Part shown: piece by piece, positions 24,843 to 25,361 of the stretch
Numbering within the stretch: the stretch's first letter is position 1
How the letters are laid out: each line of letters begins with the position of its first letter
NCBI RefSeq assembly: GCF_003334785.1
Contig: NZ_QOWV01000009.1
Source: Escherichia coli
Lineage (GTDB): Bacteria > Pseudomonadota > Gammaproteobacteria > Enterobacterales > Enterobacteriaceae
Direction: 5' to 3' (one strand)
DNA length: 64,000 nucleotides
Notes under the pieces: model-generated
What the model was told of the DNA's origin: nothing
Databases searched by the model: none
Seen by the model: the letters and a program-made list of their open reading frames with translations, nothing else
Position numbers and translations under genes: made by a program

Positions 24843-25361
24843 CTACGACAGAATACCCAGCGGCCAGTGATGACCGATAAAATACAGGATGCCTGCGGAA
24901 ATCACCCCGGCGACAATATCGTCGATCATGATCCCCATGCCGCCATGCACATTGCGATCAAACCAGCGGATCGGCCACGGCTTCCACATATCCAGAATAC
25001 GGAAAATCACAAACCCGGCGGCAACCCACTGCCAGTCATTGGTCGGCAGCGCCATGAGCGTGATCCACATACCAATAAATTCGTCCCAGACAATGCTGCC
25101 ATGATCGTGCACACCCATGTCTTTCGCCGTTTGATGACAAAGATAGACGCCGATACAGATCCCCAGCATCACCACCAGCGAGTAGAGCTGCCAGGGCAAA
25201 AAGGTCATCAGATACCAGAACGGAATCGCTGCCAGCGAGCCCATCGTCCCAGGAACGATCGGGCTTAATCCACTTCCGAATCCGACAGCAAGTAGATGCC
25301 ACGGATTACTCATCTTCAGGCGACTTTTCGCGACATCTTTATGGCGTGGCAAAATGGTCAT
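24843..25361 (-). CDS. pgpA: Phosphatidylglycerophosphatase A (172 aa)
   Basis: ORF track 172 aa [48 protein letters not shown]... Confidence 0.95.

Follow-up and report, generated by a model that had tools for sequence, protein, structure and literature searches.

The thiL-pgpA junction carried by this 64,000-nucleotide stretch of Escherichia coli DNA (the window) is very probably the known junction of E. coli K-12, in which pgpA starts inside thiL and the two genes make up the distal module of a complex operon. Translation of pgpA begins in the +1 frame, within the final eight thiL codons. Both the junction and the overlap are already annotated and published. Our additions are a comparative case for a TTG start codon of pgpA and a conserved terminator-like hairpin after nusB.

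Positions 24700–29100 of the window match E. coli K-12 MG1655 at 100% identity, and 5,425 of 5,426 complete E. coli genomes carry this region. The six genes of the cluster lie on the minus strand, as do all features described below unless the other strand is named: nrdR (28499–28948), ribD (27392–28495), ribE/ribH (26833–27303), nusB (26394–26813), thiL (25339–26316; thiamine-phosphate kinase, 325 aa) and pgpA (24843–25361; phosphatidylglycerophosphatase A, 172 aa). These RefSeq coordinates agree with a mechanical list of open reading frames, and the MG1655 cluster nrdR-ribD-ribE-nusB-thiL-pgpA (b0413–b0418) has the same sequence, the same coordinates for all six genes and the same 23-nt overlap. 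The intergenic gaps measure 3 nt (nrdR-ribD), 88 nt (ribD-ribH), 19 nt (ribH-nusB) and 77 nt (nusB-thiL), in line with the range of 3 to 88 nt given by the first-pass annotation. All six proteins exceed their NCBIfam equivalog cut-offs. PgpA scores 330.9 bits against NF008288 (cut-off 226), its residues 7–170 matching positions 1–164 of the 165-position profile, and ThiL scores 647.1 bits against NF004350 (cut-off 441) and 398.2 bits against TIGR01379 (cut-off 184). Direct reading also places a REP-type palindrome (24798–24830) 13 nt 3' of the pgpA stop codon, between the convergent genes pgpA and yajO. At 24797–24865 there is a weak match to naRNA4, a REP-derived family (24.1 bits, E = 0.34, below the gathering score).

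Direct reading of the 3' end of thiL gives TGG AAA GGA TAT GAC CAT TTT GCC ACG CCA TAA, and the +1 frame across it gives the 5' end of pgpA, ATG ACC ATT TTG CCA CGC CAT AAA GAT. The annotated ATG of pgpA (25359–25361) spans the Tyr319 (TAT) and Asp320 codons of thiL, and an in-frame TTG (25350–25352), which encodes Leu4 of annotated PgpA, is a candidate for a conserved alternative or ancestral-clade start. Both lie inside thiL. The extent of the overlap depends on which is used: 23 nt (25339–25361) from the annotated ATG, 14 nt from TTG 25352. The 23-nt overlap claimed in the first-pass annotation is therefore confirmed by RefSeq, by the open-reading-frame list and by the letters themselves, provided that the annotated ATG is used. 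Since pgpA starts, in a different frame, within the coding sequence of its same-strand upstream neighbor, thiL and pgpA form an overlapping co-directional pair. Such overlaps occur in 7 of the 44 annotated co-directional neighbor pairs of the window (1, 1, 4, 4, 11, 23 and 38 nt), and the 23-nt overlap is statistically nothing special within the window. The ThiL family profile matches residues 4–322, including a G-Y-D-H-F motif coded in the same stretch as the pgpA start; the conserved C-terminal Y-D-H-F of ThiL is therefore dual-coded with M-T-I-L of PgpA. The overlap is described in Sci Rep 2024 (PMC11143247), which notes that pgpA "partially overlaps with thiL" and that 20 nt of thiL are missing from the Keio deletion of pgpA.

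False overlaps often stem from longest-ORF annotation. An in-frame ATG does exist 3' of the thiL stop codon, at Met17 of annotated PgpA (25311–25313), and a start there, at 25313, would place pgpA 25 nt beyond thiL and turn the overlap into an artefact of that kind. We compared 80 loci from species-representative genomes, 77 from Enterobacteriaceae and three from Serratia, with pgpA aligned on its invariant NPWH motif. The 21 nt directly 3' of the thiL stop (25317–25337), which correspond to pgpA codons 9–15, encode in the pgpA frame a near-invariant D-V/I-A-K-S-R-L in the 77 Enterobacteriaceae: D, A, R and L are found in 77/77, K in 76 and S in 74. Column entropies summed over these codons are 1.66, 0.40 and 7.78 for codon positions 1, 2 and 3, respectively, and this concentration of the variation in third positions is characteristic of protein-level selection acting on the pgpA frame. 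Residue 17, for its part, is Met in 30 of the 77 species and Leu in the other 47. Seven constrained codons upstream of a residue that is mostly Leu place the start of pgpA translation inside thiL. The NCBIfam PgpA profile, which matches from residue 7 onward, and the position of the ATG in Serratia, at the equivalent of E. coli Lys8, also speak against Met17, and a start at this codon is highly improbable. GTG at Val10 was rejected as a start as well, the codon being GTT, GTC, ATC or ATT in many species.

Every Enterobacteriaceae species examined has an in-frame ATG or TTG within the 3' end of thiL, often with an in-frame stop just upstream that rules out any further candidate. The overlap ranges from 8 to 29 nt among the species; in Serratia it is absent, the pgpA ATG lying 1 nt beyond the thiL stop. 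The first-pass annotation had named a start of pgpA beyond the thiL stop as an observation that would count against it; the comparison of the 77 species excludes such a start.

Which codon within thiL is the start is a separate question: pgpA may start at the annotated ATG, at the TTG or at both, with roughly even odds as to which is the main one. We counted state changes by parsimony on a neighbor-joining tree of the ribH-pgpA region from the 77 species. The annotated ATG is found in 42 of them, with at least 12 state changes on the tree; a TAT>TAC change in Tyr319, synonymous in thiL, is enough to abolish it. TTG 25352 is found in 70 of the 77 species, is invariant in a core clade of these 70 and undergoes two changes in the whole tree, as compared with 12 and 9 changes at neighboring thiL-synonymous sites. 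In 32 species without the ATG, the TTG is the sole possible start between the upstream in-frame stop and the conserved codons. These distributions favor a reading in which TTG 25352 is the main start in E. coli, so that PgpA has 169 residues and the overlap 14 nt, with the ATG a lineage-specific and dispensable upstream alternative. The late beginning of the NCBIfam profile in PgpA fits the same reading. The invariance of the TTG could instead reflect selection on Leu4 or on the codon chosen for Phe322 of ThiL. Moreover, TTG is a far weaker initiation codon than ATG, the annotated ATG is fixed throughout the Escherichia-Salmonella-Citrobacter clade, and in four basal species it is the sole candidate start in the same context, so ATG can serve as a start at this position.

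The surrounding context gives the TTG some further support. A Shine-Dalgarno-like GGAAAGGA (25363–25370) is formed by the Trp-Lys-Gly codons of thiL, and its AAGGA stops 1 nt short of the ATG and 10 nt short of the TTG. The former distance is too close for classical Shine-Dalgarno-guided initiation and the latter is rather long. In all 70 species with the TTG, the thiL Gly codon within this element is GGA or GGG, both otherwise rare; the seven species that lack the TTG all have GGC or GGT. This association, perfect in the raw counts, was downgraded after parsimony and is suggestive rather than strong, because it amounts to only about two independent changes. Variation within E. coli discriminates in favor of neither start: the exact wild-type 45-mer occurs in 4,759 of 5,419 genomes, and the exact ACG or TCG variant of it in none. 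That no E. coli genome has ACG in place of the ATG within the K-12 45-mer is a point against the TTG as main start. Initiation data sets were also consulted. The annotated start has no peak in INRI-seq (five replicates) or among the tabulated Ribo-RET peaks, which would suit a start elsewhere, but about half of the annotated starts are likewise without a peak in those tables, and the missing peaks are uninformative. pgpA has no entry in the TetRP or N-terminomics supplements, where the sole N-terminomics match is the unrelated phosphatase gph. Taking both sides together, the TTG as main start is a real possibility that falls somewhat short of an even chance.

For either start, the geometry of the junction bears on how pgpA is translated. 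The only Shine-Dalgarno-like element available to pgpA would be the one built from the Lys-Gly codons of thiL, the annotated ATG lacks a well-spaced ribosome-binding site of its own, and 12–21 nt separate the candidate starts from the thiL stop on their 3' side. This arrangement argues that pgpA is most likely translationally coupled to thiL, being translated by ribosomes that are translating thiL or have just terminated on it (termination-reinitiation). Such coupling would tie the output of PgpA to that of ThiL. Known coupled pairs with ATGA or TAATG junctions resemble thiL-pgpA in that both genes are on the same strand, the downstream start falls within the upstream gene or at its end, and the ribosome-binding site is within the upstream coding sequence. 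They differ in overlapping by 1 or 4 nt rather than by 14 or 23 nt, so reinitiation at thiL-pgpA would need the ribosome to back up 12–21 nt from the stop. We found no RNA structure sequestering the pgpA start, the local fold being no better than that of shuffled sequences (z = 0.17), and nothing points to a fold that ribosomes on thiL would have to melt.

Two frames that overlap by 23 nt in a widely conserved gene pair might also suggest programmed frameshifting that yields a ThiL-PgpA fusion protein. Direct reading of the overlap reveals no canonical slippery heptamer, and the fold just described offers no stimulatory structure. The overlap varies in length between species and gives way to a gap in Serratia, and an in-frame start codon for pgpA is always kept. 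A frameshift product is thus vanishingly improbable.

The second addition concerns the supply of transcripts to the thiL-pgpA pair. The 77-nt spacer between nusB and thiL contains an intrinsic-terminator-like element (26336–26388), which consists of a hairpin (26388–26346; minimum free energy -25.4 kcal/mol, z = -2.7) followed by UUUUCUUUUUU, a U-tract at 26345–26336. A hairpin with a T-rich tail, ending 27–30 nt 5' of the thiL ATG, is present in 69 of 78 loci. Its GGCCGG/CCGGCC base is conserved, and the inner stems vary by genus yet remain paired. A simple terminator scan missed this hairpin because its loop exceeds the 8-nt limit of the scan. We converted MG1655 positions into window positions as 461950 minus the genome coordinate, a relation checked against two gene starts. 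The dominant Term-seq 3' end of Adams et al. 2021, at 435608 on the plus strand of MG1655 (score 4139.75), then falls at window position 26342, the fifth base of the U-tract, and the sequence given for it there is identical to that of the window; Adams et al. class it only as "orphan". The spacer therefore combines a GC-rich hairpin and a U-tract with an RNA 3' end observed in vivo within that tract, as an intrinsic terminator does, and this 3' end may have arisen by processing instead.

Many transcripts would end at this element, just after nusB, and expression of thiL and pgpA would then depend on read-through. The approximately 28 nt between the hairpin and the thiL ATG are taken up by the ribosome-binding site of thiL. 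In this respect the element resembles the leaky intrinsic terminators known as attenuators, by which operons give proximal and distal genes different expression levels; these likewise place a GC-rich hairpin and a U-tract between co-directional genes, leave too little space for a promoter ahead of the next gene and coincide with an in vivo 3' end. From this combination we infer that thiL and pgpA are probably expressed by read-through of a leaky terminator-like hairpin.

How the whole cluster is transcribed has to be weighed against the simplest scheme, a single operon in which one promoter and one terminator serve all six genes. The tight packing is consistent with that scheme, as is the gene order, which is kept in all 74 Enterobacterales loci with sufficient flank; nusB-thiL-pgpA occurs in this order also in Pseudomonas aeruginosa. 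The simple scan saw no classical terminator between the genes on the minus strand. RT-PCR in Vibrio cholerae has shown nrdR through pgpA on one mRNA (Gut Pathog 2017, PMC5312566). The operon described there, proBA-nrdR-ribD-ribE-ribA-ribH-nusB-thiL-pgpA, is co-transcribed and has the same order from nrdR to pgpA, with proBA, ribE (riboflavin synthase) and ribA as additional genes. It also has a large region upstream of ribH that holds a truncated riboswitch remnant (PMC5312566).

Against a single promoter stands the ribD-ribH spacer, where an extended -10-like TGCTAAAAT (27353–27345) precedes a GC-rich hairpin, GCCCCCCUGCGGGGC, the two together occupying 27327–27353. The -10-like element, TGNTAAAAT, and the GC hairpin after it are nearly invariant across all loci examined; a simple promoter scan instead selects the neighboring TCGAAA-18-TATTAT. 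A gSELEX paper gives ribE-nusB-thiL-pgpA as a transcription unit. Against a single terminator stand the conserved hairpin and U-tract after nusB and a series of RNA ends. Besides the one in the nusB-thiL spacer, Adams et al. 2021 report two further 3' ends: a Term-seq end at 434622 (window 27328), where the GC hairpin between ribD and ribH has its foot, and an end within pgpA, at 436722 (window 25228). They also report a bicyclomycin-sensitive region of Rho termination within thiL, at 435798 (window 26152). The SMRT-Cappable-seq supplement has no entry for the cluster.

These internal 3' ends speak for more than one transcript species, and a simple operon is improbable. We infer instead a complex operon rather than one uninterrupted unit. 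Transcripts would start upstream of nrdR and at the conserved promoter-like element in the ribD-ribH spacer, and thiL-pgpA would be a distal, weakly fed module. The dense mixed operon proposed in the first-pass annotation accordingly stands as far as co-directional, tightly packed genes in a fixed order are concerned, and it does not stand as an uninterrupted unit, given the internal -10-like element, the hairpin, the 3' ends and the Rho region.

The same annotation had seen no riboswitch-like leader, and a covariance-model scan bears this out. Within the cluster, no match to an Rfam family attains the gathering score; in the whole window only those to sraA and naRNA4 do, both outside the cluster. 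Relaxing the threshold to E ≤ 10 gives five chance-level matches in the cluster, none of them a riboswitch, with neither FMN (RF00050) nor TPP (RF00059) among them. In agreement with this result, rib operons that include nrdR or nusB have been reported to be without an FMN riboswitch, none being found before the V. cholerae operon (PMC5312566). Autoregulation through NusB/NusE and boxA was considered separately and rejected, there being no coding-strand boxA in the leaders of the cluster. A search for boxA-like TGCTCTTTAACAA with up to three mismatches found none on the coding strand of the cluster and a sole cluster match on the plus strand, at 27621. Matches in the window as a whole (25 observed against 17.9 ± 4.5 expected) are at chance level.

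The relation between the two overlapping genes may be more than positional. When the deletion of pgpA was rebuilt so as to spare thiL, TPP was still lowered, and pgpA complemented the deletion (PMC11143247). The description of these neighbors as genes of unrelated function is weakened by this drop, which lends some substance to a functional link behind the conserved nusB-thiL-pgpA arrangement. That arrangement is widely conserved, extending to Vibrio and Pseudomonas. A stronger version would make thiL-pgpA a functional module of a kinase and a membrane phosphatase, held at a fixed ratio by coupled translation and separated from ribE-nusB by a leaky terminator, with PgpA taking part in TMP/TPP homeostasis and, as a corollary, the start at TTG 25352. 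We regard this version as speculative and rather doubtful.

The scientific stakes of the junction are small, and its consequences are in part practical. Any clean deletion of pgpA from its annotated start, or any tag placed there, harms the conserved C-terminus of ThiL, and thiL is treated as essential in the literature. The uncertainty over the N-terminus of annotated PgpA matters for N-terminal tags and expression constructs; should TTG be the conserved start, the annotated N-terminus in E. coli is three residues too long. For the biology of the cluster, the conserved hairpin after nusB and the promoter-like element before ribE argue that the dosage of thiL-pgpA is probably set by read-through, and that it is too simple to regard nrdR to pgpA as a single unit of expression. 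If the two genes do form a functional module, their pairing would not be an accidental packing of unrelated genes.

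The nusB-thiL spacer, which lies within a cluster that the first-pass annotation had read as one dense mixed operon (nrdR-ribD-ribH-nusB-thiL-pgpA), contains a conserved hairpin followed by a U-tract, resembling an intrinsic terminator (26336..26388, minus strand). This element coincides with a published Term-seq RNA 3' end, at MG1655 position 435608 (window 26342), which Adams et al. class as 'orphan' only. In five of the loci fetched from species-representative genomes (L050, L058, L060 (Buttiauxella), L054 (Cedecea) and L028), insertions of 50-130 nt enlarge the spacer to 168-207 nt, compared with the usual length of about 75 nt.

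The ribD-ribH spacer presents a second conserved arrangement on the minus strand (27327..27353), recognized by comparison of the Enterobacterales loci. An extended -10-like element, TGNTAAAAT, is near-invariant in all of these loci and is followed by a GC hairpin, GCCCCCCUGCGGGGC, whose foot corresponds to a Term-seq 3' end at 27328. An upstream AAGCAGYGC motif is likewise conserved. Here too the spacer is enlarged by insertions in a subset of the loci, reaching 134-213 nt in L066, L068, L069, L074 and L057 versus about 88 nt usually. Several of the insertions in the two spacers have palindromes in them and resemble small mobile repeat elements. One locus of the comparison, L061 (CACSKA010000001.1), carries the label Chryseobacterium sp. 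18061; its nrdR-pgpA locus is typical of Enterobacteriaceae, its PgpA is 88% identical to that of E. coli, and it groups with Pluralibacter in the tree. The record has probably been mislabelled, or its assembly contaminated.

Across the whole window, only the sraA sRNA (3134..3229, plus strand, 106.7 bits) and naRNA4 (50737..50816, minus strand, 79.8 bits) score above the Rfam gathering score. A single REP-type palindrome at 24798..24830 is located between the convergent pgpA and yajO genes, 13 nt past the pgpA stop; it matches naRNA4, a REP-derived family, only weakly, its 24.1 bits falling below the threshold. The longest yajO ORF (23743..24789, plus strand) begins with a GTG at 23743, compared with the RefSeq start at 23815; the latter is the exact position of a strong 3' end in Adams et al. 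(MG1655 438135). The annotated panE-yajL overlap (38 nt; 18309..18346, plus strand) is longer than that of thiL-pgpA, and cyoB and cyoC overlap by 11 nt (13290..13300).

Two further published features on the minus strand lie within the last two genes of the cluster. Adams et al. report a Term-seq 3' end inside pgpA at 25228 (MG1655 436722), 133 nt past the gene start, with a non-significant Rho score and a value of 5.97 in the last column, taken here as the intrinsic-terminator score; either premature termination or an RNA end internal to the ORF could account for it. Within thiL, about 165 nt past its start, position 26152 (MG1655 435798) marks a region for which Rho termination sensitive to bicyclomycin has been published, with a Rho score of 2.29 (p = 1.1e-5); it would be a second attenuation point ahead of pgpA.
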